64,000 bases of DNA from Deltaproteobacteria bacterium. Lineage in GTDB: Bacteria > Myxococcota > Kuafuiibacteriia > Kuafuiibacteriales > Kuafuiibacteriaceae. This document shows, piece after piece, positions 1 to 12,414 of this stretch. A model generated the notes under the pieces. The model did no database searches, had not been told where the DNA came from, and saw only the letters and a program-made list of their open reading frames with translations. The stretch covers positions 128,001-192,000 of the forward strand of contig JAVJQW010000043.1 in assembly GCA_040218735.1 (NCBI GenBank). Reading direction: 5' to 3'. The first letter of the stretch is position 1, and every line of letters starts with the position of its first letter. The position numbers and the translations under genes were made by a program.

Positions 1-1544
1 AACTCGCCGTCGTCGGTGCGGTCGACGTTCGTCGCGACCTGGAAACGCTCCACCGGCTCGCGTCCCGTGTCGATCACGAGCGTCGCGGTGCGGTTGTACG
101 TCTCTTCGACGAGGAAGTCGTAGCTGACGCCGTCGCGATCCTCGAGGTCGAACTCACCCGGGCTGAAGAACAACGCCTCGGGCCGCGCCAAGAACTCCTT
201 GATGAGGTCCGCGTTCACGTCTTCGTTCGACATCGAGATCAACACCGAGCTCCCCGCTCCGCTCGGCGCCAGCGTGAAGACGCGGTTGCCGTTCTCGTCG
301 AGCTGCCCGCCGTCGTCGACCGTCAGCGTCCCCACCGTGCGGAACGTCCCGCCCCCGAGCGGTGCGTCTGGGCTCGGCGACGCCGCCCACTGCATCATGG
401 TGATCGACGGGTTCACGAGCTCCACCGCCGAGATCCCCGTGTTCACGAACCGGAACGCCATCCGCACCTCACCGCGCGACGTCTTCTCTTCGTTGATCTG
501 CGTGTCGCGTCGGTACTCCGACGAGGTCCGCGTCGCCGACTGCGATGACGCCGTGGTGAGCGTCGTCGACGTGGTGTTCACCGTCTCCGGCGTCGCGTCC
601 GCACACAGCTCCGTGTCCGAGAGGCCCGTCGCCTTCAGCACGGAGCCGGCCGCCTCACCGACCAACCCGACCGTCTCCTTCAGCGCGTTCGGATTGTCCT
701 TGTCGAACTTCACCTCGCCGCCGCTCTTCGCGGAGTCACACGCCGCGGACCGACCGAGCTCGAGCGCCTTGCCGCCGAAGAACTTGAGCGCGCCCGCCTT
801 GCTGAACTCGAGGTCGTCGAAGAACCCTTCGCCGCCGGAGGAGGCCGCGGTCGTGACCGCCGTGCTCTCCATGTCGCTCCGCTCGGTCGAGCTGGAGTTC
901 GTCGTCGAGTAGACGCTCCCGTATTCGACCTCGCTCCGATCGCCGGTCAGGTATTCGACGCGAAGTCGGATGTCGATGTCGCCAGCCGACACCATGTCGA
1001 GCTGCGGGATCTCGGCGACGCGCGGGTCGCGGTTCGTCACGTCGCGCTCCTCGCGGTCGTCGAGCCCGTCCCCGTCCGTGTCCGCGAGCGTCGGCGACGT
1101 CCCCGCCGCGACCTCCGCGCCGTCGAACAGCGCCGCGACGGGGAGTGTGGTGTCGTCCTCGTCGAGCGCGTCACCGTCCGAGTCGACGCTCGAGAGGTTC
1201 GACCGGTAGCGGTACTTCTCCTCGAAGTCATCGAGCTGGTCACCGTCGGTGTCCGCGAGCGTCGGGTCACTGCGCTCCGCAAGCTCGATGTCGTCGGTGA
1301 GCCCGTCGCCGTCGGTGTCGGCGAGGGTCGGGTCCGACACGACCTTGCGCCGTGTGACGAACTCGGCGCCCGCCGCGAGGCCGTAGCCGAGCTCGTCCAC
1401 GACGACCTCCCAGCCGGCGAGCTCGATCGCATCGGTGAGCCCGTCGCCGTCGGTGTCGACGGTGGCCGGGTCGTTCGCGCCGCCGCCGCAGGCGAGCGCG
1501 AGCGCAAGCAACAAGAAGGTCGGAGTGGTTCGGGTGATCTTCAT
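1..1544 (-). CDS. Lipoprotein with Ca-binding DxDGDG repeats and a protective-antigen/binary toxin B-like region (partial, 3' end runs off the window)
   Basis: Manual translation from ATG at 1544: MKITRTTPTFLLLALALACGGG (lipobox), then DTDGDGLTDAIELAGWEVVVD, SDPTLADTDGDGLTDDIE and further repeats, DPRVAEIPQLDM, and Ser/Thr-rich STTNSSSTERS...GEGFFDD. Open to the window edge, so absent from the ORF track. GAGG lies just upstream. Confidence 0.75.
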   Translation of the reverse strand, partial: MKITRTTPTFLLLALALACGGGANDPATVDTDGDGLTDAIELAGWEVVVDELGYGLAAGAEFVTRRKVVSDPTLADTDGDGLTDDIELAERSDPTLADTDGDQLDDFEEKYRYRSNLSSVDSDGDALDEDDTTLPVAALFDGAEVAAGTSPTLADTDGDGLDDREERDVTNRDPRVAEIPQLDMVSAGDIDIRLRVEYLTGDRSEVEYGSVYSTTNSSSTERSDMESTAVTTAASSGGEGFFDDLEFSKAGALKFFGGKALELGRSAACDSAKSGGEVKFDKDNPNALKETVGLVGEAAGSVLKATGLSDTELCADATPETVNTTSTTLTTASSQSATRTSSEYRRDTQINEEKTSRGEVRMAFRFVNTGISAVELVNPSITMMQWAASPSPDAPLGGGTFRTVGTLTVDDGGQLDENGNRVFTLAPSGAGSSVLISMSNEDVNADLIKEFLARPEALFFSPGEFDLEDRDGVSYDFLVEETYNRTATLVIDTGREPVERFQVATNVDRTDDGE

Positions 1545-1555
1545 CCTCGAACCGG

Positions 1556-1581
1556 GTGCGAACGCAGCCCGTTTCGTGGCA
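1556..1581 (-). promoter_or_regulatory. Putative ECF sigma promoter TGCCACGAAAC-N10-CGCAC upstream of the PA-like gene
   Basis: The identical 11-mer plus CGCAC at the same 10-nt spacing recurs at 3405-3430, upstream of the anti-sigma gene. Confidence 0.55.
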
Positions 1582-1612
1582 CGCCGTCGGCGATTTTTTT
1601 CGCGGTCTGTGG

Positions 1613-2647
1613 TCAGGCGGCGCGGGCGCGCAGGACCGCGGCCTCGCGGAGCACCAGGTCCGTGCGTTTGTAGTCGGTCACGAGGTCGACGAAGAGGCGG
1701 TCGGAGCCTGCATCCCGCGGCCGCATCCCGGTGGGGAGCAGCTCCGCGACGAGCAGCTTGTCCTCCCAGCGGCGCAGGAAGTCGTCGGCCGCGTAGACCT
1801 CGCCGCTCTGTCCGTCGACGATGAACGTCTGGTGGATCGATGCGTCTGCGCCGACGCTGCGGTGCGGCGTCACCACGTTGAGCAGGTGGCACGTCTTCGT
1901 GCCGTCCGCGTCGATGCCTTCGAAGGACAACACCGCACGTTCGCCCGGTTGGAGCTCCGCGATACGGTCGCGCAGCGACGCCGACACGCCGCTCCGCTCC
2001 GCGACGGGGGAAAGCCACCGATGATCGAAGTCGTCCGCGAACCCGGTCGGGACGCTCGCCCACATATCGGACTCCTTGGACTGGAAGAGCTCCACGGCAT
2101 CGCGCGGATGCCCGAGCCGATTCGCCACCTCCCAGATGGAGTAGTCCCGGGCGTTGTGCCGGGCCATGACGCGGATCGCGGGGAGCTCGGCCACGGCGCG
2201 CATCGCCGCCTCGACCTCCGTCGTGCCTCGGGAGAAGTCGGCGCTCCGCAGCGCTTCCACCGCCGCGGTGATCGTCGGGCGCCCTGCGTCGATGAGCGCT
2301 TCGAACGTGACCCGTTCGTCGCGGAGCGCGATCAGGTCCGGGTTCGTTTCGTCGGCGTCGATCAACTTCGCGAGCACCTCGGGGTCCGCGAGCTCGGCGG
2401 CGACGCCCGCGTCGTCATCCGCGTACGCGTCGAGCCGTTCGCCGCGCGCCACCGCCGCCCCGAGCCCTGCGAGGCGCTGGTCGACCGCGATCGAGCACTC
2501 ACTGCAGTTGTGCGTGGAGCGCTCCGGGTTCACGAACAACTGATTGGAGCCGAGCGACGAATAGACGAGCGCGAGCTGCTCTTCGAGTGTGCGTTCGTCG
2601 TCGAACCGCCGTGCGACGAGCTGAGGGATCTGCCCCGGGCTCCGCAT
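1613..2647 (-). CDS. Papain-fold toxin-like protein (Tox-PL / glutamine deamidase-like)
   Basis: Motifs HNCSECSIAVDQRLAG, CHLLNVV and FIVDGQSG match the NCxxC...H.xNV...DxQxG pattern of Tox-PL domains. No signal peptide. Confidence 0.65.
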   Translation of the reverse strand: MRSPGQIPQLVARRFDDERTLEEQLALVYSSLGSNQLFVNPERSTHNCSECSIAVDQRLAGLGAAVARGERLDAYADDDAGVAAELADPEVLAKLIDADETNPDLIALRDERVTFEALIDAGRPTITAAVEALRSADFSRGTTEVEAAMRAVAELPAIRVMARHNARDYSIWEVANRLGHPRDAVELFQSKESDMWASVPTGFADDFDHRWLSPVAERSGVSASLRDRIAELQPGERAVLSFEGIDADGTKTCHLLNVVTPHRSVGADASIHQTFIVDGQSGEVYAADDFLRRWEDKLLVAELLPTGMRPRDAGSDRLFVDLVTDYKRTDLVLREAAVLRARAA

Positions 2648-2734
2648 GTTTGGCGGGCTGCGTTGGCCGTAGTCGGTTCGGTGCTCGGGGCCTCCCGCGA
2701 GGCGCGTCAGGTCGTGGGGCGGGGCGGGTCTGTC

Positions 2735-3388
2735 TCACCGAACTCGGAGCGGGATCCTCGCAACGACCTCCCATTCGGTCGCGAGCTCCAGCTCCAGCAA
2801 CCCCGGTTGCAGCACCCCCGCGTCGACCTCGACGATCAGCGGCGCCTTCTCGGGGCGTTTCACCGATGCGGTCCACACCGCGCGGTCCCCGGCGCGCAGG
2901 GTCGCGACGAACGACGTCGCGCGCACCGTCGACTCGAACGTGACGACGAACCGCACCGGGCCGCCGCCGTCGATCACCTTCGGAGCGGCGTCGGCGCGGT
3001 AGGTGTTCGGGGCGAGGTTCACCATGGTCGGCTCCTTCGGGAGCACCACGAGCGCGACCACCGCCGCGGCCGCCGCGAGCCCGAGCACGCCGAGCCACTG
3101 CCACTTCGCTCGCGGGGCCTCGCGGGGACGCGCGTCGGCGCGACCCTCCAACGCCTCCGCGAAACCGAGCTCGTCCGCCCACGCGCGCTCGTCCTCGATC
3201 TTCTTCGCGACGATGGCCCGTTCGTCCGCCGGGAGCGTCCCGTCGCGGTAGGCCTGCACGAGCTGAGACCGCAGCGCACGCACGGCGTCTTGGGTGTCGT
3301 CGGCCAGGAAGGCGGCCTCCTCGACCGCATCGTGATCCTCGGGGGACAGCCGCCCGAGGACATAGGCGCGCAGTTGTTCGGGGTTCAT
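2735..3388 (-). CDS. Putative transmembrane anti-sigma factor
   Basis: N-terminal YVLGRLSPEDHDAVEE anti-sigma-like helices without Zn ligands, a central TM segment WLGVLGLAAAAAVVALVVL and a beta-rich C-terminal domain. Overlaps the sigma stop by 4 nt (ATGA). Confidence 0.7.
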   Translation of the reverse strand: MNPEQLRAYVLGRLSPEDHDAVEEAAFLADDTQDAVRALRSQLVQAYRDGTLPADERAIVAKKIEDERAWADELGFAEALEGRADARPREAPRAKWQWLGVLGLAAAAAVVALVVLPKEPTMVNLAPNTYRADAAPKVIDGGGPVRFVVTFESTVRATSFVATLRAGDRAVWTASVKRPEKAPLIVEVDAGVLQPGLLELELATEWEVVARIPLRVR

Positions 3389-3999
3389 GGCGTCTCACCC
3401 TCCTGTGCGTCGCCGCCTTGTTTCGTGGCAGATGTTTCGTCACGAAGTCGTGATTCGATGCACCGCTTCAGGCGAACCCTGAGACGCGCCGCGCGACTCC
3501 TCAGGTTCACCTCGGTGAGGCCGAGGTCCTCCGCGAGCGCGCGACGGTGTCGTGTCTTCTCCCGCCCGACGAGCCCCCGGTGGTATTCGAGGAGCACGCG
3601 CCGTTCGGCGTCGTGCATGCCTTCGAGGCAGCCGTCCATCGCGGCGAGGAGGCGCTCGCGCTCTGCGGCGTCATCGTCCTCGCGCACGGACGGCGTGCCG
3701 AGCGGCTTCGTCCGCTGGTCCTCGCGGCTCGCCTCCAGGGCGACGAACCGCGCGACGCCCAAGACGTAGCGCAGCGGATCGGGGTGCTCGACCTCGAGCC
3801 CCTCTTCCAGTTTTCGCGCGACGCGGTCGAGCGTCTCGTCGGCGAGCGCGGGGGGATCGGCGAGCGCGCGGCACTCGAAGAGCGTGACGAGGCGATCGTG
3901 CACGCGTCGGTACGCGTCGCCGACGGACTCGTCCGGACCGCGCCCCAGCATGTCGGCGAGCGCGCGCCACCGATCCGCGTCCAGCGTGCCCGAGGCCAC
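3385..3999 (-). CDS. ECF-type RNA polymerase sigma factor
   Basis: Region 2-like LADETLDRVARKL and YVLGVARFVALE; region 4-like CLEGMHDAERRVLLEYH...LAEDLGLTEVNLRSRAARLRVRLKRCI. Confidence 0.8.
   Translation of the reverse strand: MASGTLDADRWRALADMLGRGPDESVGDAYRRVHDRLVTLFECRALADPPALADETLDRVARKLEEGLEVEHPDPLRYVLGVARFVALEASREDQRTKPLGTPSVREDDDAAERERLLAAMDGCLEGMHDAERRVLLEYHRGLVGREKTRHRRALAEDLGLTEVNLRSRAARLRVRLKRCIESRLRDETSATKQGGDAQEGETP
3405..3430 (-). promoter_or_regulatory. Putative ECF sigma promoter inside the 3' end of the sigma gene, driving the anti-sigma gene
   Basis: TGCCACGAAAC-aaggcggcga-CGCAC followed by the RBS AGGAGG and the ATG at 3388. A related half-site GTGACGAAAC lies immediately upstream. 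Confidence 0.55.
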
Positions 4000-4050
4000 G
4001 GTGTCGTCTTGTCAGAGGATCGGACCTGCGCACAACATCTGTCCCGAGAG

Positions 4051-6714
4051 ATGCCCGCTGCCCGGTGGATCCTGCTGGCGCTCGCGCTAGCGGGGTGCCG
4101 CGAAGCGAAGCGTGCGCCGCCCGACGCCGGGATCGAGCTCGTACGGACCTGGTCGGGCCGGCTGAGCGGGTCGCAGCCTCTCCACCTGGACGTCCCGAAG
4201 GGCGCCGCCGTGGAGGTGGTGGTCGAGCAGCGCAGCGCCGACGTCGCGCTGGTTTGGGGGGGCGAGCGGATCGACCGTGTCGCGGGGCCCCGAGGCGACG
4301 AGCGGTGGGGCGGGCGCGCCCCGGACGGTGTCTTCGTCCTCGAGAAGGCGCACCCGAGGTTCGACAACGGCGAGGTGCGTCTTCACGTCGTCACTGGGAC
4401 ACGCGCGGAGGCCCGCCTGGAGCTGCACCGTGTGCTGCGCGCCTACGAGACAGGCACCGCGACCGTCGCCGCGTCGTGGCGTGCGCCCGACGACGAGACG
4501 GAAGCGGAGCTCACGCTCGCGGAGGCGGTGTGGCGGTGGGAACGTCGCGAGGTCGAGCTCGCGCAAGCTGGATTGCAGAGCGCGATCGAGCGCGCGAAGT
4601 CACGCCGGGACATCGCCGCACGCGCCCACGCGCGGCTCGGCGACATCGCGTACTTCCTGGGCGATCTGGAGGCGGCCAAGACCCACTTCGACGAAGCGCT
4701 CCGTGGCGCGCTCGCGATCGACGCGGCGACGATCGAGCTCCAGGCCCGCATCGGCGTCGCAGCCGTCCACTCTTCGAAGAACGAACACGACGAAGCGCTC
4801 GCGGTCTTGGAGCACGTCGCCGCGATCGCCGAGGGCGTCGGCGACGACTATTCGCTGGCAATCGCCTACGACCTCACGGGGACGATCTACTTCCGGCTCG
4901 GCGAGTCCCGGCAGGCGCGGAGGTACTACGTCGACAGTCACGACGCGCTCGCGCGTCTGAACGCGACCCAGGCGCAGGGGCGCGTCCTCCACAAACTCGG
5001 GCTGCTCGCGCGGGAGCTCGAAGACGACATCCCCGCTGCGCTCGACGCGTTCGACCGCGCGCTGCCCATGTTGGAGGACGCGAAGAGCGTCGAGGGGGAG
5101 GCGCTGGTACACATCGACCGCGGCCTCACGTGGTTCCTCCGCGGAGAGCGTGACGCCGCGAAGAAGGCGCTCGAACAGGGTTACGCGCTCTCCAAGAGGT
5201 ACCGGATTCAACACCTGCACGGTCGCGCGGCGTGGGGCCTCGGCGTGTTGGCCAACGCCAACGGTGATCACGAGGCTGCGGTCGAGCGCTTCGAGGAGGC
5301 GGTCGAGAAGTTCGACGCCGTGCAGGACGCGATCTACGAGGCGCGCGCCGAGGGCGGGCTCGCGCAAGCCTGGCGCTCGCGGGGCGGCGCGAAGGAGGCG
5401 CTCGAACACGCGCAACGAGCGGTGGCCCTCGCGGAGTCCGTGCGCGCTCGCGTTCGCGCGCCGGACCTGCGGACGAGCGCGTTCGCCGACGTACGTCGGA
5501 CCTACGAGCTCCTGCTGGCGCTGCGAATCGCGACGGGGGCGTCACCGCTCGAGACCCTCCGCGTGAGCGAACGTGCGCGCGCTCGTTCGTTGTTCGAAGC
5601 GCTGCAGCGCGCGCGGGTCGCCGATGTCGCGCTGCGATCCGCGATCCCGGATCTCTCGGTCCCCGATCTCACCCGCCGCCTCGGCCGCCAAGGTGCCCTG
5701 GTCGAGTACTTCCTCGCGGAGCCGCGGAGCTGGGCGTGGGTCGTCGACGCCGACGGTGTTCGTCGCTACGAGCTCGCGGGGCGCGCGAAGATCGAGGCTG
5801 CGGTGCGCGCGTGGCGGGACGCGATCGAGGCGCGAGGCCCGGAGGTCGACGCGCTGGGCGCTCCGTTGTCTGCACTGATCGGCGCACCGCTGGCGAAGGC
5901 GCCTCGGGACCTCTGGATCGTCCCGGACGGCGCGTTGCACTACGCGCCCTGGGCGGCGTTGCCCGACGGTGACGGACGCGCGCTGGTGGAGCAGCACATC
6001 GTACGCCTCGCGCCGAGCGCGGCCTTTGCTTCGCGTCCCGCGAGGCCCATGCCCGAGGCGCCGAGGATCGCCATCGTCGCCGATCCGGTGTTCAGCGCCG
6101 CGGACCCCCGCCTCGAGACCCCCGACCCGGCGGCGGATGTACCCTTCGCGCGCCTCGGGTTCGCGCGAAGTGAAGCCGACGTGATCGCGAGCCGTGCGAA
6201 GGGACGCGCCGATCGATGGCAGGGGGTCGACGCCAACCTCGCGCTCGTCCGCGGAGGCGCGTTCGCGGGGCGGGACATCCTTCACTTCGCGACGCACGCC
6301 GTCGTCTCTCCCACCTCGCCCGAGCGCGCCGCGTTGATCCTGTCGCTGGTCGACGCGGACGGGACGTCACGCGAAGGCGCGCTCACGCTCGCGCATATCT
6401 ACGACCTCCAGCTCGACGCCCGGCTCGTCGTCCTCAGCGCGTGTGAGACCGCGCTCGGTGAGCACGTGCGCGGGGAGGGGCTCCTCGGTCTGGGGCGCGC
6501 GTTTCTGTTCGCGGGGAGTCACTCGGTGGCGTCGAGCCTGTGGCGGGTCGATGACCGCGCGACGTACCAGCTCATGTCGCGGTTCTACGCGGAGCTGCTC
6601 GGGACGCACTCGGACCCGGCTCGGGCCCTGCGCGCGGCGCAACTCGGCCTGCGCGCCGATGAACGGTACACGCACCCTCGTGACTGGGCATCGTTCCTCG
6701 TCGTCGGGCGCTGA
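4051..6714 (+). CDS. Lipoprotein TPR-CHAT (caspase HetF-associated) cysteine protease
   Basis: Start MPAARWILLALALAGC (lipobox), multiple TPRs, and CHAT motifs LWIVPDGALHYAPWAAL, ILHFATHA (His), LVVLSACETALG (Cys), SLWRVDD and HPRDWASF. Confidence 0.9.
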   Translation: MPAARWILLALALAGCREAKRAPPDAGIELVRTWSGRLSGSQPLHLDVPKGAAVEVVVEQRSADVALVWGGERIDRVAGPRGDERWGGRAPDGVFVLEKAHPRFDNGEVRLHVVTGTRAEARLELHRVLRAYETGTATVAASWRAPDDETEAELTLAEAVWRWERREVELAQAGLQSAIERAKSRRDIAARAHARLGDIAYFLGDLEAAKTHFDEALRGALAIDAATIELQARIGVAAVHSSKNEHDEALAVLEHVAAIAEGVGDDYSLAIAYDLTGTIYFRLGESRQARRYYVDSHDALARLNATQAQGRVLHKLGLLARELEDDIPAALDAFDRALPMLEDAKSVEGEALVHIDRGLTWFLRGERDAAKKALEQGYALSKRYRIQHLHGRAAWGLGVLANANGDHEAAVERFEEAVEKFDAVQDAIYEARAEGGLAQAWRSRGGAKEALEHAQRAVALAESVRARVRAPDLRTSAFADVRRTYELLLALRIATGASPLETLRVSERARARSLFEALQRARVADVALRSAIPDLSVPDLTRRLGRQGALVEYFLAEPRSWAWVVDADGVRRYELAGRAKIEAAVRAWRDAIEARGPEVDALGAPLSALIGAPLAKAPRDLWIVPDGALHYAPWAALPDGDGRALVEQHIVRLAPSAAFASRPARPMPEAPRIAIVADPVFSAADPRLETPDPAADVPFARLGFARSEADVIASRAKGRADRWQGVDANLALVRGGAFAGRDILHFATHAVVSPTSPERAALILSLVDADGTSREGALTLAHIYDLQLDARLVVLSACETALGEHVRGEGLLGLGRAFLFAGSHSVASSLWRVDDRATYQLMSRFYAELLGTHSDPARALRAAQLGLRADERYTHPRDWASFLVVGR

Positions 6715-6761: not shown

Positions 6762-8660
6762 GTGCGACGCCTCGCACCGCTGTTGATGTTCGCGACGGTC
6801 GCGTGTTCGTCGAAGCTCGCGCTGGACGTGCGGCTGACGATGGCGCTGCGTCCCGATCCCTTCGAGGACGTCGCGACCGTCAGACTTCGCGCGCTGGAGG
6901 GGGGCCGCCTGGTCGACGTCGGCGAGGGCCGCTGGGACCAGGGACCCCTCGACCTTCCCACGCTGGTGTCGCCCGAGGCGTCGCGGTTCGTGATCGAGGG
7001 CCTCTCGGAAGACGGGCGTGTGGTCTCTTCCGGCGCGTCGGGTGAGCTCGATCTGCTCACGGCGCCGCCCGAGGAGGGGCTCGACATCGTCTTCACGCGG
7101 GTGGGGGTGCTGAGTGTCCTCGACGATCTGGGCACCCCCCGCATCGGGGGCCGCGTCGTCGAGCTCGACGACGGGACGCTCCTCGTCGCGGGGGGCGTCG
7201 ACGAGAGCGGTTGCGCGCGCGAGGACACCGAGATCTATTCAATGGACGGCGCCCGCCTCGAACGTGGACCGCCGCTGGTCGGAGGTCGCGTCGGTGATTT
7301 CCACCTCCTCGCGCTCGGCGACGCGCGGTCGGTCGTCGTGGGCGGAGAGGCGGCGCCGGGTTGTGGTGAGGCGGTCGCGGCGAGCGATGTCGTGGTGTTC
7401 GATGGCCGCTCGGCGCGCCGCGTCCAGGCGCCTGGGTTCAACCTTCGTGGTGCGAGCTACGCGGTCTCGTCGGCGACGGAGATCGCCGCCGCCGGCGGGG
7501 AAGGGGACATCGTCTCGCGCACCGAGGTGCTCCGCCTCGACCTCGGCTCGGAGTCCGTGCGGTCCATCGGCACGCTGGACGCGCCGCGCGCGTGGGCGCA
7601 GGGCGTCGTGGTGTCCTCGGGGCGCATCGCGCTCCTCGGGGGACAGGCGCAGCGCGACGCGGCGACGGCGCTCGACTCCACGTCCGTGTTCGTCCCCAGC
7701 CGTGGTGCGGCGCTCGACGAGCGCATCGGTCTGGGGCGTCCGCTCATTGCGCCGGCCGCGTGGCGCACGGTGGCCGGCGGCGTCGTCTACGCGGCGGGGC
7801 GCTCCGCGACCGGTGAAGGCCACGCCGAGGTTCGGATGTTGGTGGTGAAGACCGAGCGCGACTTTCCGCTGGGGGATTCGACGTTGGTGACGTCGGTGTC
7901 GTCGACGGTCTCGGACGGGCGCTTCGTCGATGTCGGCGACGGGAGTGTGTTGCTCCTCTCCGACGAGCGCGCCTTCTGGGTGCAGACGTTACCGCGACGC
8001 GCGCGCTCGCTCGACGCCGAAGGGGCCGCGCTCCTCGGCGGAGGGCGTGTCGCCGACGGACGTGTCGTCCTCCGCGCTCGCGACGGTCGTTACTTCTCGT
8101 TCAACCCGGGGCTGTCCGTGCTCGGCGTGCTCGCGCGTCAGGGTCGGCTCGCCGTCGACGAAGGCGAAGTGCTCGATGGTGTCGGCATCGGCGTGGTGCC
8201 GCGACGCCCGGACGCTTGGCAGCTGACGACCGAAGGTTTGGTCGTGACCCAACCCGATGCGCTCGAAGGTGAGGTGCGACCGAACGAGTGGGCGGTGTTT
8301 GCGCAGGACACGCAGCTCGACTTCGAGGTCGCGTTCGACATGCGCCTCACGGCGAATGCGCGCGCGGCGCTGCTGTTCGGTCTCGAGGATCAGCGCTTCG
8401 ATCACGTCGTGCTCGGGGCACGAATCTCGGCCCATCGTCAGGACACGATCCTCGACTGCCCGACCGTCGAACGCCCCGAGCTGGCGAACGGCGCGTTTCA
8501 CCGTATTCGGGTGACGCGCTCCGGCGAGACGATCACCGTCGCCGTCGACGGCGCCAACGTGTTCGGCTGCGCGTTGCGTTCGCCGCGCGTGGGGCGATTG
8601 GCGCTCGGCGGCGTGTCCGGCGTGGTGGCGTTCGATCGTGTCGCGTTCGAGGCGCTGTGA
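6762..8660 (+). CDS. Kelch-type beta-propeller lipoprotein with a C-terminal ConA/DUF1080-like domain
   Basis: Lipobox TVAC; Kelch-like repeats (LDDGTLLVAGG, SSGRIALLGG); C-terminal FHRIRVTRSGETITVAVDG...GVVAFDRV. Confidence 0.65.
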   Translation: MRRLAPLLMFATVACSSKLALDVRLTMALRPDPFEDVATVRLRALEGGRLVDVGEGRWDQGPLDLPTLVSPEASRFVIEGLSEDGRVVSSGASGELDLLTAPPEEGLDIVFTRVGVLSVLDDLGTPRIGGRVVELDDGTLLVAGGVDESGCAREDTEIYSMDGARLERGPPLVGGRVGDFHLLALGDARSVVVGGEAAPGCGEAVAASDVVVFDGRSARRVQAPGFNLRGASYAVSSATEIAAAGGEGDIVSRTEVLRLDLGSESVRSIGTLDAPRAWAQGVVVSSGRIALLGGQAQRDAATALDSTSVFVPSRGAALDERIGLGRPLIAPAAWRTVAGGVVYAAGRSATGEGHAEVRMLVVKTERDFPLGDSTLVTSVSSTVSDGRFVDVGDGSVLLLSDERAFWVQTLPRRARSLDAEGAALLGGGRVADGRVVLRARDGRYFSFNPGLSVLGVLARQGRLAVDEGEVLDGVGIGVVPRRPDAWQLTTEGLVVTQPDALEGEVRPNEWAVFAQDTQLDFEVAFDMRLTANARAALLFGLEDQRFDHVVLGARISAHRQDTILDCPTVERPELANGAFHRIRVTRSGETITVAVDGANVFGCALRSPRVGRLALGGVSGVVAFDRVAFEAL

Positions 8661-8822: not shown

Positions 8823-10196
8823 GTGTCCGTGGCCGATGCGGCAGCGCGAAGCGATGCTTCGCCCCCACGTGTCCTCGTGGCCGAGGACGACGAGCGCCTC
8901 GCGCGGCTCGTTGCTGCGCGTTTGGTGCACGGTGGCTTCGAAGTCGACTGCGTTTCGGACGGGTTGGCTGCGCTCGAAACAGCGCGTCAGCATACCCACG
9001 GGATACTCGTCCTCGACTATCACCTGCCGAAGCTCGACGGCATCGGCGTGCTCGAAGCGCTCGACGGTCTCGAGGATCGCCCCGCCGTCATCTTGATGTC
9101 TGGTTTCCTCGACGTCGAGCAGACGTTGGAAGCCCTTCGCCTGGGCGCCGCCGAGGTGTTGGAGAAACCGTTCGACCCCGCGCGTCTTTGTGAGGTGGTG
9201 CGATCGGTCGAGCTGCGCGCCAATGACGCGACGCAGGATCTCGTGGCCGACGCGAGCGTCGAGTACTTCGGCGCGTCTGCGCACGCGCGTGCCGTTCGTG
9301 ATCACATCGTGGCCGTCTCGCAATATCCGGAGCTCCCGGTGTTGATCGTCGGTGACACGGGCACGGGCAAGGAGGTCGTCGCGAAGTCGATCCACGCGAT
9401 GCGCGACGGCGACGATCCGTTCGTCGCGATGAACTGCGCGGCGATCACGGACGAGCTGTTCGAGAGCGAGCTCTTCGGTCACGAGGCCGGTGCCTTCACC
9501 GGCGCCGGCGCGCGTCGCGTCGGTCTCCTGGAATCCGCCAAGGGCGGCACCGTCTTCCTCGACGAGATCGGCGAGATGCCGCTGACGCAGCAAGCCAAGT
9601 TGCTGCGCGTCCTCGAGGACCGATCGTTCCGCCCCGTGGGCTCGAACCGCGAAGTGCCGCTCCGCGCACGAATCGTCAGCGCGACGAACCGCGACGTGTC
9701 GGGGGAGCAGCCGGGCGTGATGCGATCCGATCTGTTCTTCCGGCTCGCCGGGTACACGATCCGGCTCGAGCCGCTGAAGACCCGACGCGAAGACATCACG
9801 GTCCTCGCCGAGCGGTTCGTTCAAGACTTCATCAAGCGCTATGCGTCGTCCGATCGTGAGCTGTCCGCGCTCGCGCTCGACGTGTTGCGAATGCACGACT
9901 GGCCCGGCAACGCACGTGAGCTCCGCGCGGTCATCCAGTTCGCGTGCATCCTCGCGACGGACGGCGTCATCGGCGTTCGGCACGTCATCGAGGCCCTGCG
10001 TTCTCGCGGGGTCACGAAGACCGCGGCGACGGCGGAGCCCACGGATCGCGGTGACGTCGGGCTCCGCGAGATGGAACGCCAGCGGATCGCCACCGTGTAC
10101 GCGGAGTGCCGCGGCAACGCGAGCCGCGCCGCCCGCAAGCTCGGCATCCCGCGCTCCACGCTCCGCGACAAACTCGAGCGGTACGGCATCAGTTAG
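8823..10196 (+). CDS. Sigma-54-dependent response regulator (NtrC family)
   Basis: REC domain (VLVAEDD, LDYHLP), AAA+ (GDTGTGKE, ESELFGHEAGAFTGA, FLDEIGE, WPGNAREL) and a Fis-type HTH. Confidence 0.95.
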   Translation: MSVADAAARSDASPPRVLVAEDDERLARLVAARLVHGGFEVDCVSDGLAALETARQHTHGILVLDYHLPKLDGIGVLEALDGLEDRPAVILMSGFLDVEQTLEALRLGAAEVLEKPFDPARLCEVVRSVELRANDATQDLVADASVEYFGASAHARAVRDHIVAVSQYPELPVLIVGDTGTGKEVVAKSIHAMRDGDDPFVAMNCAAITDELFESELFGHEAGAFTGAGARRVGLLESAKGGTVFLDEIGEMPLTQQAKLLRVLEDRSFRPVGSNREVPLRARIVSATNRDVSGEQPGVMRSDLFFRLAGYTIRLEPLKTRREDITVLAERFVQDFIKRYASSDRELSALALDVLRMHDWPGNARELRAVIQFACILATDGVIGVRHVIEALRSRGVTKTAATAEPTDRGDVGLREMERQRIATVYAECRGNASRAARKLGIPRSTLRDKLERYGIS

Positions 10197-10199
10197 TCG

Positions 10200-11228
10200 T
10201 CAGTTCTGCGCGCCGAGCGCCGCGGTCACGCGGCTCAGCTCCAGCCGCTGCATCCCGATCGTCGTGTTGGTGGGCGAGAACACCGACATCACGATGCGGT
10301 CGTTGTTGATACACCGCATGAGGACGACCTGGTCGCGTCGGGTCAGGACGATCTCCTCGACCGTATCGCCGAGATCCATCGTAGCGACCGCCGAGCACTC
10401 CGCTCGGTAGAGCGCGATGACGAGCTGCGCGAGCTCGTCGAGCCCCTCGCAGTCCCCTTCCGACCAAAGGATCTTGCCGGTGTCCGCCGTGATCTCCGCG
10501 ACGGCGTCGGCGCCGTGGGGGAACGGGGCGGTGAAGTCGCGGGCCTCGTTCAGCTCCAACCCCGACTCGTCGCGAATGCGCATCGACTCCATGATGAGGA
10601 AGCTCATCGACGTATCGATGGTCTGCTCGCCGGAGGCGAAGAGGCTCGAGATGGTGATCGCCGGTGCGTTCCAGCCGATGATCTCGAGCGCTGCGGCTTC
10701 GCCGACCTCTTCGCCGAGTTTCGCGTGGATCAGCGCGCCGTCACGGATGTGGAGTCGGCCGCGGCGCTCGCCCGACTGCACGGTCAACGTGCAGGTCTTC
10801 CGCTCCATCTCGATGATCTGGAGGAACGAGGCGAGGCTGATGTTCCGAACGTGTCCGCGCACGCCGCGCGCGACGGCTTCGAGCAGACGCTCCAGCACGT
10901 TCGGAATGTCGAGCGGCTTCGTGAAACACTCGATCGCCCCGAGGCGGTCGAGCCGCTCCACCGACGCCTGGTCCGGGAAGCCGGTCATCGTGAACACCGG
11001 GACGTGCGGCGCGTTCGACACGATCCACGCGAGGAGCTCGAAGCCGTTCATGCCCGGCATCTGCAGGTCCGTGAGCACCAGATCGACCGGCGTCGACGCG
11101 AGGAGCTCCAACGCCTGCGACCCGTCGGTCGCCGTCACGACCGAGAGATCGCTTCGACGCACCGACAACGTGCGCGCGAGCGCTCGCAGCTGCGCGGGGT
11201 CGTCGTCGATGAGCAACAGACGCGTCAC
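10200..11228 (-). CDS. Response regulator with REC, DUF4388/PATAN-like and roadblock-like C-terminal domains
   Basis: REC (LLIDDD, TDLQMPGMNG, KP); GHVRNISLASFLQIIEMERKTCTL...GALIHA (DUF4388); C-terminal DTVEEIVLT...IGMQRLEL resembles roadblock. Confidence 0.8.
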   Translation of the reverse strand: MTRLLLIDDDPAQLRALARTLSVRRSDLSVVTATDGSQALELLASTPVDLVLTDLQMPGMNGFELLAWIVSNAPHVPVFTMTGFPDQASVERLDRLGAIECFTKPLDIPNVLERLLEAVARGVRGHVRNISLASFLQIIEMERKTCTLTVQSGERRGRLHIRDGALIHAKLGEEVGEAAALEIIGWNAPAITISSLFASGEQTIDTSMSFLIMESMRIRDESGLELNEARDFTAPFPHGADAVAEITADTGKILWSEGDCEGLDELAQLVIALYRAECSAVATMDLGDTVEEIVLTRRDQVVLMRCINNDRIVMSVFSPTNTTIGMQRLELSRVTAALGAQN

Positions 11229-12220
11229 ACGCCGTCCCCCCGAGGTAAGTAGAAAGCGAACGACGCGCCGCTGGTCGTCGGCTCCAACGTCAACGCACCG
11301 CCGAGGCTCTCGGCCGCTTCCTTAGCATTCGTGAGCCCCAGGCCCGTACCCTGTTCACGCGTCGTGAAGAACGGAAGGAATATCGATTCACGCAGCGGCG
11401 CCGGAATGCCGGGGCCGTCGTCGACGACGCGGACGCGAACGAATTCCGTGTCGGGGATGTCGGGGAGCGGCGCGCGCTCCGCTTGCACGTGCACGTGGGT
11501 CGCGTTGCTCGAAGCCTCCGCGGCGTTCAGCAGGAGGTTCACGAGCACCTGCTCGATCGTCAGCGAGTTGCCCCGCACGCAGTCGGCGTCGTCCGCGACG
11601 TCGATCGTCAGCTCGTGTTCAGCCTTGTGGTAGACCGCGCGCAAGAAGCCCGACGCGCGGTTGAGCGTCTCGCGCAGCGACACCGGCACCGAGACCGTCG
11701 GGCCGAGTCGGGCGTAGTCGAGGAGCCCGTCCACCGTCCCCTGCAACCGCCGCGTCGCGGCCACGACGTCCTCGGCCGTGTCGCGCACCTGCTCGGGCGA
11801 GAGCGAGCCTGACGCCACGGCGAGGTAGTCCGCGCTGTACATGATGTTCGCGAGGGAGTTGCGAAGGTCGTGGGCGATGCTCGCGACGAGGCGACCCGTC
11901 GCCTCCAGGCGCTGGCGATGGAGGCGCTTCGAGGTCTCGACGTGTTTGTCCGAAATCTCGTTCATCAGGAGGAGGTAGTCGTTGCCCGTGCGATAGCGTG
12001 TGCAACCGAGTACATCGAGGCACTCGCGCGAGCGCCACTCGATGGCGTGACCGACCGGGACACGCTCCAGGGAACGCCACAGATCCGATGGCAACGGCCC
12101 GGGGACGTCGTCGATCGCACCGAGGCGGATGAGCATGTCCCGGCCCATCGGCGTCCCCGCAATCGCATGCCCCGCCCGCGAGCACAACGCGAGCGGCGCT
12201 TCGATGCGTTCGAAGTCCAT
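11225..12220 (-). CDS. Cytoplasmic sensor histidine kinase
   Basis: H-box SIAHDLRNSL, N-box NLLLNAAEA, G boxes DDGPGI and FFTTREQGTGLGL. No TM segment. Start chosen at MDFERIEAP. Confidence 0.88.
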   Translation of the reverse strand: MDFERIEAPLALCSRAGHAIAGTPMGRDMLIRLGAIDDVPGPLPSDLWRSLERVPVGHAIEWRSRECLDVLGCTRYRTGNDYLLLMNEISDKHVETSKRLHRQRLEATGRLVASIAHDLRNSLANIMYSADYLAVASGSLSPEQVRDTAEDVVAATRRLQGTVDGLLDYARLGPTVSVPVSLRETLNRASGFLRAVYHKAEHELTIDVADDADCVRGNSLTIEQVLVNLLLNAAEASSNATHVHVQAERAPLPDIPDTEFVRVRVVDDGPGIPAPLRESIFLPFFTTREQGTGLGLTNAKEAAESLGGALTLEPTTSGASFAFYLPRGDGV

Positions 12221-12358
12221 CGCGACCCATGAACACAAGATTCGTTCCCGTCGATGCCGGCGGAGGATCGTCGCGGGAGGTGGCGGATACCGCCACCGGA
12301 TCGGCGGCATTCGCCAGGTCCCGTCGGCGCGGTGTGACCGGCGGACGTGTTCGCGGTG

Positions 12359-12374
12359 TGGCCCACCCGTTGCA
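12359..12374 (+). promoter_or_regulatory. Putative sigma-54 (-24/-12) promoter of the roadblock gene
   Basis: TGGCCCACCCGTTGCA has the exact GG-N10-GC spacing and a TTGCA -12 box, 40 bp before the start at 12415. Confidence 0.6.
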
Positions 12375-12414
12375 CTTCGGCTGATGCACACCCGATTCGA
12401 GGAGGAGAACGAAC

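Follow-up and report, generated by a model that had tools for sequence, protein, structure and literature searches.

In Myxococcus xanthus, the sigma factor DdvS, of the extracytoplasmic function (ECF) class, is encoded beside DdvA, a single-pass anti-sigma factor whose periplasmic domain is a tetratricopeptide repeat (TPR)-CHAT protein with a His/Cys dyad (PMC11506125; PMC6061681, both in their accessible sections). According to the accessible sections of the first report, a truncated DdvA without the periplasmic domain is degraded by RseP, and a signal-triggered self-cleavage of the linker by the CHAT domain in trans has been proposed and not shown; dyad mutants are like the wild type in the absence of the signal, and protease and substrate are one polypeptide with an unknown signal (PMC11506125). 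A more distant comparison is Craspase of type III-E CRISPR systems, where sigma factor, inhibitor and TPR-CHAT protease show genetic linkage (Csx29/Csx30/sigma) and proteolysis is taken as the sigma-freeing step (PMC10028731, accessible sections). This article describes a locus at the beginning of a 64,000-nucleotide stretch of DNA (the window, G000:C17:128001-192000, G000 being the source genome, an 11.6-Mb assembly of 70 contigs) in which a separate TPR-CHAT lipoprotein is encoded next to an ECF-like sigma/anti-sigma pair, a papain-fold protein and a lipoprotein resembling protective antigen (PA), the B component of anthrax toxin. In the labels used below G denotes a genome, C a contig, L an extracted locus and g a genus; the source genome belongs to g1.

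The sigma, anti-sigma and CHAT protease module

The locus is probably a composite, made up of a conserved split TPR-CHAT sigma switch and lineage-specific toxin-like neighbours. The first unit would comprise the ECF-like sigma factor, a single-pass anti-sigma factor whose periplasmic part is a small beta domain, and a TPR-CHAT protease that is a protein of its own, lipid-anchored in the periplasm, and may be regarded as the two-protein (split) form of the Myxococcus DdvS/DdvA switch. In the proposed mechanism the TPR part would sense a periplasmic protein signal, the CHAT domain would act as site-1 protease and cut the periplasmic domain or linker of the anti-sigma factor, and an RseP-type intramembrane protease would complete the degradation, whereby the sigma factor would be freed; the site-1 role of the CHAT protein is considered plausible, short of probable. 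The second unit would consist of a papain-fold enzyme restricted to the genus, a PA-like lipoprotein that has two paralogs in the genome and a leucine-rich repeat (LRR) protein, viewed here as neighbours and not as integral parts of the switch.

The first unit is recognized by its synteny. Among 301 sampled genomes of the phylum, homologs of the sigma factor (E up to 1e-8) were found at 14 places in 12 genomes, one of which is G000, and about 20 kb was extracted around 12 of the 13 places outside the window (the one left out lies in G197, a congener of G194). In seven of these 12 other sigma loci (L061-L066 and L072) a TPR-CHAT lipoprotein adjoins the sigma/anti-sigma pair, the one in L065 having been detected by blastp clustering and Pfam and not by tblastn, and in L068 a Peptidase_C14 (caspase) protein occupies the CHAT position. 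The usual order in the relatives is sigma, anti-sigma and CHAT on one strand, anti-sigma and TPR-CHAT being separate open reading frames (ORFs) there too; no other gene is common to these sigma loci, whose neighbours are housekeeping or variable. The CHAT-bearing loci come from genera g115 (five genomes), g7 and g50, to which g1 is added. Sigma factor, anti-sigma factor and caspase-fold protease form a conserved module, and the functional link between the CHAT protein and the sigma/anti-sigma pair that the initial annotation had proposed from the window is supported by this synteny in four genera of three families and by the published DdvS/DdvA system. The same publications speak against its view that a CHAT-sigma combination had not been described. 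A literature search on separate CHAT proteases beside ECF pairs, in which subscription journals were not covered, returned only the DdvA and Craspase work.

High GC (about 70% in the window) makes every frame seem open, 75 ORFs of at least 60 aa overlapping the first 12 kb, and for this reason genes were picked by the GC content at the three codon positions. The pattern agrees with genes on the minus strand between 1 and about 3400 and on to 3999, followed by one on the plus strand between about 4050 and 6714. In window positions, the features are as follows.

4051-6714, plus strand: TPR-CHAT lipoprotein protease, 887 aa
4000-4050: divergent intergenic region from sigma start to CHAT start, 51 bp
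3385-3999, minus strand: ECF-like sigma factor, divergent, 204 aa
2735-3388, minus strand: single-pass anti-sigma factor, 217 aa, its start overlapping the sigma stop by 4 nt
1613-2647, minus strand: papain-fold protein (Gln_amidase/SpvD-like), 344 aa
1-1544, minus strand: PA-like lipoprotein, 5' part (514 of 1086 aa), full gene at L009:10287-13544, minus strand
outside the window, about 50 bp after the PA-like lipoprotein gene, minus strand: LRR protein, a sixth, co-oriented gene, 389 aa

The codon-position GC and the ORF coordinates confirm the annotated places and layout of all five genes within the window, including the 51-bp spacing between the sigma and CHAT genes. The PA-like lipoprotein gene leaves the window; its end, G000:C17:126287, lies 1714 nt ahead of window position 1, its coding sequence inside and outside the window totals 3257 nt, and tyrS comes after the LRR gene on the opposite strand. 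Gaps on the same strand measure 87 bp between the anti-sigma and papain-fold genes, 68 bp between the papain-fold and PA-like genes and about 50 bp between the PA-like and LRR genes. An 8825-nt contig of a run from another study (X2) covers the region from the 5' end of the lipoprotein gene through the CHAT gene with 46 differences, and a second X2 contig (7378 nt) extends over tyrS, the LRR gene and the greater part of the lipoprotein gene. The X2 DNA represents a near-identical strain and not an independent lineage; since a single X2 contig spans it, the gene order is not an assembly artefact.

The TPR-CHAT protein starts with an N-terminal lipobox (LALAGC) and continues with a beta domain of about 150 aa, a TPR superhelix and a C-terminal CHAT domain (Pfam CHAT, E 5.3e-62 over residues 600-886; TPR_12, E 8.3e-19, and further TPR families). 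Residues H745, H749 and C798, the last in a SAC motif, are unchanged in eight of eight homologs, and every homolog with its start in view has a lipobox or signal peptide. Its earlier description as a predicted exported, lipid-anchored TPR-CHAT protein with an intact His/Cys dyad is borne out by the lipobox and by these homologs. In the Protein Data Bank (PDB), a profile of the CHAT domain found separase (E 9e-4) and Csx29-type CHAT chains (E 0.13-0.35), and the full-length profile found TPR proteins only.

By its sequence the sigma factor is classed as a divergent ECF-like sigma. It has no Pfam match at E up to 0.1, and its NCBIfam matches stay below the cut-offs (TIGR02989, E 1.5e-7; sigma70-ECF, E 3e-5); profile A7, built from 12 homologs of 30-45% identity, reached the ECF sigma factor SigL in the PDB (E 0.0036) and a second ECF sigma factor at 0.053. 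The anti-sigma factor matches zf-HC2 at 23.8 bits (cut-off 22.2), over profile positions 6-24 only, and NCBIfam NF052375 at E 1.2e-7. It consists of N-terminal anti-sigma helices, one transmembrane helix at about 96-116 and a periplasmic beta domain of about 100 aa, and the homologs (alignments A4/A5) have the same N-terminal helices, transmembrane helix and C-terminal beta domain of about 100 aa. Its sequence is without any Cys and hence has no CHCC zinc site.

Two side observations concern these proteins and their relatives. C124 and C180 of the sigma factor are unchanged in 12 of 12 homologs (A7), and a redox or metal role is possible for them. Genome G000 has a paralogous sigma/anti-sigma pair (L067, G000:C66:61500-81400), which is followed in the CHAT position by an 1849-aa ORF without a Pfam match and adjoins an HSP70-like, DUF3731 and DUF2760 trio as well as a YhgA-like transposase gene.

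With DdvS/DdvA the module shares an ECF-type sigma factor encoded beside a single-pass anti-sigma factor, a periplasm-facing TPR-CHAT with a His/Cys dyad, a host apparently of the same phylum and, in both cases as a proposal, CHAT as site-1 protease followed by RseP. In DdvA the TPR-CHAT is the anti-sigma factor's own ectodomain, whereas here it is a separate 887-aa lipoprotein encoded on the opposite strand; the anti-sigma factor here lacks the Cys/CHCC zinc site and has an ectodomain of only about 100 aa, and no CBASS or CRISPR genes lie nearby (PADLOC, 12 proteins around the module). PADLOC gave only generic TPR, kinase and sigma-54 activator matches for these 12 proteins, and Pfam identified housekeeping and two-component genes in the module's surroundings. 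Craspase is cytoplasmic and RNA-guided by Cas7-11, whereas this module is envelope-located and has no CRISPR; the NCBIfam models Csx29 (NF041237) and CAS_III-E_sigma (NF041236) scored 11.9 bits vs a cut-off of 300 and 12.7 vs 100, respectively. Canonical regulated intramembrane proteolysis (RseA/DegS/RseP) also has a single-pass anti-sigma factor, and a separate site-1 protease facing the periplasm has to take off its periplasmic part before site-2 cleavage, as would be the case here. There the site-1 enzyme is a PDZ-bearing serine protease, whereas the candidate in this locus would be a lipid-anchored caspase-fold Cys protease with a TPR sensor. The locus would be a Myxococcota-type split module keeping only the three core genes; its natural two-protein form, with protease and presumed substrate encoded apart, makes cleavage accessible to plain co-expression and the use of dyad mutants.

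The PA-like lipoprotein and the papain-fold protein

The initial annotation also named a sigma/anti-sigma pair, a papain-fold enzyme and a PA-like core, and each of these is present. The PA-like lipoprotein is composed, in this order, of a lipobox, thrombospondin type 3 (TSP3)-type Ca-binding repeats, regions like PA domains 1', 2 and 3, further TSP3 repeats and a C-terminal seven-bladed beta-propeller. The first TSP3-type repeats directly follow the lipobox, and no PA14 match was obtained at E up to 10. Pfam recognizes TSP3_bac (E 1e-9) and Lactonase (E 1.4e-6), with Binary_toxB (PF03495) at E 0.24 (12.1 bits vs a cut-off of 25), and a PDB search with the single sequence found no PA. Profile A1, in which residues 1-745 are aligned with 12 homologs from genomes of the phylum, reached anthrax PA (E 5.3e-5), C2-II (E 1.5e-3) and, more weakly, Vip1 in the PDB. 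In hhalign, residues 93-187 of A1 were placed on 201-296 of the precursor encoded by pagA (probability 74.6, E 2.6e-5), and the aligned part covers domain 1', which binds Ca, and reaches into domain 2 as far as its first strand.

The fold extends the likeness further. The AlphaFold2 model of the protein (pLDDT 66) is confident at 30-190, mostly moderate at 354-735 and below 50 at 200-353, and its best Foldseek matches are all B components (CDTb, Ib, PA, Vip1 and Vip4, E 4.7e-8 to 1e-5, the former value for CDTb). By VIA-align the model is superposed on Ib with Z 9.4 (rmsd 3.8 A, 259 aligned residues, 17% identity, residues 118-617) and on the PA pore with Z 9.2 (118 to about 620 on PA 174-595), the identities being 16-17%. 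A profile of residues 345-625 alone (A6) found no PA-family chain in the PDB, and the PA likeness of domains 2-3 is for that reason supported by fold only. At the position of the membrane-insertion loop of PA there is a low-confidence Ser/Thr-rich segment; in the compact homologs this segment is rich in Ser, Thr and Ala and alternating by eye, and the subclade of this locus has about 85 extra residues, two conserved Cys among them, inserted where the tip of the putative hairpin would be. A scan of the beta-hydrophobic moment did not pick out the putative insertion hairpin. F460 is invariant in the family and F465 and F477 are nearly so, with no residue-level alignment to the phenylalanine clamp of PA.

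Compared with the binary-toxin B components (anthrax PA, CDTb, iota Ib, C2-II, Vip1 and Vip4/Vpb4), which it resembles by sequence in domain 1' and the start of domain 2 and by modelled fold in domains 1', 2 and 3, the protein is a lipoprotein of a diderm host and has extra TSP3 repeats in the place of the PA14/PA20 pro-domain. A TSP3 block and the seven-bladed propeller replace the receptor-binding domain 4, and there is no conserved A-component gene near the 16 PA-like loci. Matches to the protein (E up to 1e-10) were found in 22 of the 301 genomes of the phylum, to the core in 17 and to the TSP3 repeats only in five; tandem copies occur in G227, G233, G262 and G004 (G004:C2). Two paralogs of about 70% DNA identity are encoded in G000, one at C39:141255-144440 and one on C18 (L011:6874-10134), the latter adjoining mreB, mreC and a PBP2-type gene. 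Public records name the relatives lactonase, TSP3 or hypothetical only, and a literature search, subscription journals not being covered, found no paper on PA-like proteins of Myxococcota, the Binary_toxB work being all on Firmicutes or unrelated. Such lipoproteins would extend the PA-type pore-forming core to lipoproteins of diderm bacteria, and the family would thereby bear on the predatory attack of prey membranes. As a separate observation, the relative in L074 (G039:C11:7642-10954) is present as two overlapping ORFs with the break at query residues 504-522, approximately, which may be a frameshift or a natural split.

The papain-fold protein matches Gln_amidase (PF15644) at E 0.0074 and 17.8 bits, below the Pfam cut-off of 24.1; the four members of its family all match Gln_amidase at E up to 10, with E 0.0074 as the best value. 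A PDB search with the single sequence gave no match, nor did Foldseek with the AlphaFold2 model (four sequences; pLDDT 71, pTM 0.73) against the PDB at E up to 0.001. VIA-align, which is independent of Foldseek, placed the model on 8brf (Z 8.8, rmsd 3.4 A, 123 aligned residues), SpvD (Z 7.6) and AvrPphB (Z 7.3), followed by clippases, ZUFSP and UfSP proteases, C39 peptidases and a CdiA-CT toxin. Of 30 feature matches in the ESM Atlas, 21 carry the family set of the best match (Gln_amidase clusters), and an SpvD cluster is among the best three. C48 (in an NC..C motif), H254 and D278 are unchanged in four of four members, this triad being assigned by sequence position and not by geometry. With the Gln_amidase (PF15644)/SpvD group the protein has in common the N-terminal NC..C nucleophile candidate, the later His and Asp and the fold match; it differs as a stand-alone 344-aa protein that is not a polymorphic-toxin tip or phage protein, by its score below the Pfam threshold, by a helical insertion of about 130 aa between Cys and His and by its tiny family.

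This family occurs in two of the 20 genomes of the order (twice in G000, once in its congener G011). A word-indexed search of 5.8 billion proteins gave two relatives, and among 1.84 billion representatives there were three, the third of them, P0003 (4178 aa, 14 stretches), being set aside as a repetitive adhesin-like protein with a repeat-driven match. The papain-fold enzyme is genus-restricted. Its paralog in L015 (G000:C66:242001-262000) and the counterpart in L016 (G011:C58) are flanked by an HSP90-like ATPase gene and, on the opposite side, by a convergent gene for a lipoprotein of TSP3/PPC type, not of the PA-like kind, with mevalonate-pathway genes further out.

Relation of the neighbours to the switch

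The place of the toxin-like genes was judged by comparing neighbourhoods. No papain-fold or PA-like homolog (E up to 1e-4) is found in any of the 12 other sigma loci, and no sigma, anti-sigma, CHAT or papain-fold homolog (tblastn, E up to 1e-3) in any of the 16 PA-like loci, which are 14 extracted loci (L073-L086), some of them short contigs, and the two G000 paralogs. No partner gene is kept across the 16 PA-like loci, apart from the family's own tandem copies, and no sigma, CHAT or PA-like gene lies near the papain-fold copies in G000:C66 and G011. Ser/Thr kinase genes within about 8 kb of seven of the 16 PA-like loci were judged uninformative; Ser/Thr kinases are very numerous in such genomes. 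The initial annotation had seen in the papain-fold and PA-like genes an A/B toxin pair that is the output of the system. This claim is not sustained by co-occurrence, with none among 12 sigma loci and none among 16 PA-like loci, and the paralogs lie elsewhere in unrelated contexts; that Tox-PL-like and PA-like genes never stand with this CHAT/sigma clade in the loci examined is also the outcome that the annotation itself had named in advance as speaking against its proposal. Its papain-fold protein as a translocated A component fares no better, there being no signal peptide, no B-binding adaptor domain match (Pfam) and no immunity gene adjacent to it.

The integrated system of that annotation, in which CHAT cuts the anti-sigma factor, the sigma factor induces the A/B toxin and the papain-fold enzyme is carried by the PA-like lipoprotein into cells of prey or competitors, is weakened by these results and is now considered very unlikely. 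It would account for four co-oriented genes with short gaps and no terminator seen between them; the PA-like core is real at the level of the modelled fold and is backed by sequence where domain 1' adjoins domain 2, the enzyme's papain fold is related to effector and toxin families, and the order is kept in the near-identical strain of another study. Against this stand the absence of co-occurrence elsewhere, the other papain-fold copies, which adjoin neither a PA-like gene nor a sigma gene, and the lack of a signal peptide, a recognizable B-binding adaptor and an adjacent immunity gene for the enzyme. The PA-like family, moreover, keeps no partner except its own tandem copies, and PA-like proteins can act alone, for which Vpb4 is an example (PMC12031524, accessible sections, and in part general background). 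It is very unlikely that the papain-fold protein is cargo of the PA-like protein, and equally improbable that the genes of the PA-like pore-forming lipoprotein, the papain-fold enzyme and the LRR protein were captured in this lineage to serve the split TPR-CHAT switch as a local output operon. Were the latter true, a diderm bacterium, probably a predator, would bring a translocase like that of anthrax toxin, with a cysteine hydrolase as cargo, into action only when its caspase-like envelope protease senses a signal in the periplasm. A third connection between the genes, that CHAT matures the PA-like lipoprotein by removing its lipid-anchored N-terminal Ca-binding repeats and so releases an oligomerization-competent pore former, as furin removes PA20, is given the least credence and is extremely unlikely: both are predicted lipoproteins of the same compartment, their genes are 2.5 kb apart and the PA-like core begins at about residue 93-118, after extra repeats that could act as a pro-piece, but no PA-like gene lies near any other CHAT of the clade, no CHAT lies near any of the 16 PA-like loci and the conserved partners of CHAT are the sigma and anti-sigma factors.

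A composite locus, the preferred reading, leaves room for regulation of the neighbours. Four terminator-like sites occur in the region vs 3.1 expected by chance, none of them in the intergenic gaps, and read-through from the sigma promoter is plausible because the genes are on one strand with short gaps free of such sites. The papain-fold, PA-like and LRR genes may therefore be co-transcribed with the sigma pair and hence be recruited to the sigma regulon in this genome; control of these downstream genes by the sigma factor is considered rather unlikely. Among 21 public sequencing runs listed there is none of RNA. A scan of L009 8900-19000, uninformative like the terminator count, gave no sigma-70-type promoter match, and inspection by eye upstream of the 12 sigma homologs and of the window gene, and in three intergenic gaps, did not reveal a clear ECF-type motif in common. 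Here the close, co-oriented spacing of suggestive genes was insufficient to define a system once neighbourhoods were compared.

Within the switch itself, CHAT might not be the activator. It could be an output, namely an exported protease made when another site-1 protease has freed the sigma factor, or could serve without catalysis as a TPR co-sensor by which the anti-sigma ectodomain is held or let go uncut; this is considered unlikely, less so than any of the toxin-based proposals above. CHAT is the last gene of the sigma/anti-sigma operon in most relatives, which is the usual place of an autoregulated target, and in the accessible sections of PMC11506125 the DdvA dyad mutants are like the wild type under the tested conditions and cleavage is not demonstrated. 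The His/Cys dyad unchanged in eight of eight homologs argues for a conserved catalytic role, and the unrelated caspase-fold Peptidase_C14 in the same place in L068 points to protease activity, and not a TPR scaffold, as the requirement. A complex prediction of CHAT 17-887 (8-row alignment) with the anti-sigma ectodomain 116-217 (4-row alignment) gave a score of 0.00 against a mark of 0.32, was run without controls and counts neither way.

Several points weigh against the composite locus with its split switch. In the window, as in L072, CHAT is divergent from the sigma operon, unlike the co-operonic arrangement of most relatives, and four of the 12 other sigma loci have no caspase-fold gene (L067, L069, L070 and L071, the L069 contig being short and reaching only about 1.3 kb past the sigma gene). 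Five of the seven CHAT-bearing loci are from one genus (g115), and the synteny therefore represents only about four independent lineages. The sigma factor lies below every curated threshold of Pfam and NCBIfam. No chain named DdvA or DdvS was matched in any PDB search, single-sequence or profile, their presence in the searched copy being unconfirmed; the likeness to DdvA is consequently one of architecture and shared CHAT superfamily and not of close homology, and the module is a split analogue within this superfamily, not a shown orthologue of DdvA. A true output operon, too, would have the papain-fold, PA-like and LRR genes closely spaced on one strand behind the sigma pair. The analysis shows which genes are present, that the synteny of the first unit is conserved and that the second unit has none; the cut by CHAT, the sensing of a signal and any co-regulation are inferred.

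Other genes around the locus

Directly beyond the CHAT gene, at 6762-8660 on the plus strand and 48 bp after its stop, a predicted lipoprotein of 632 aa (lipobox TVAC) is encoded, the gene of which may be co-transcribed with the CHAT gene. It shows weak Kelch and laminin-G matches only and has no relative in the other sigma loci or PA-like loci examined. Further on, at 8823-12391 and beyond the locus, genes are present for a sigma-54 activator of the NtrC type, for a DUF4388-bearing response regulator and for a histidine kinase; the RtcR-type matches of the activator in PADLOC are probably generic AAA+/HTH similarity. An NCBIfam scan also matched, in part, CglD and MtsD, lipoproteins of myxobacteria, which together with the size and composition of the genome suggests a host of the Myxococcota. 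In two related genomes a gene for a transglutaminase-core protein follows the CHAT gene directly and is convergent to it (L061:14267-16018 and L064:4096-5850). DNA near-identical to window positions 1-6714 is present in sponge, aquaculture, biofloc and biofilm metagenome runs from several studies.

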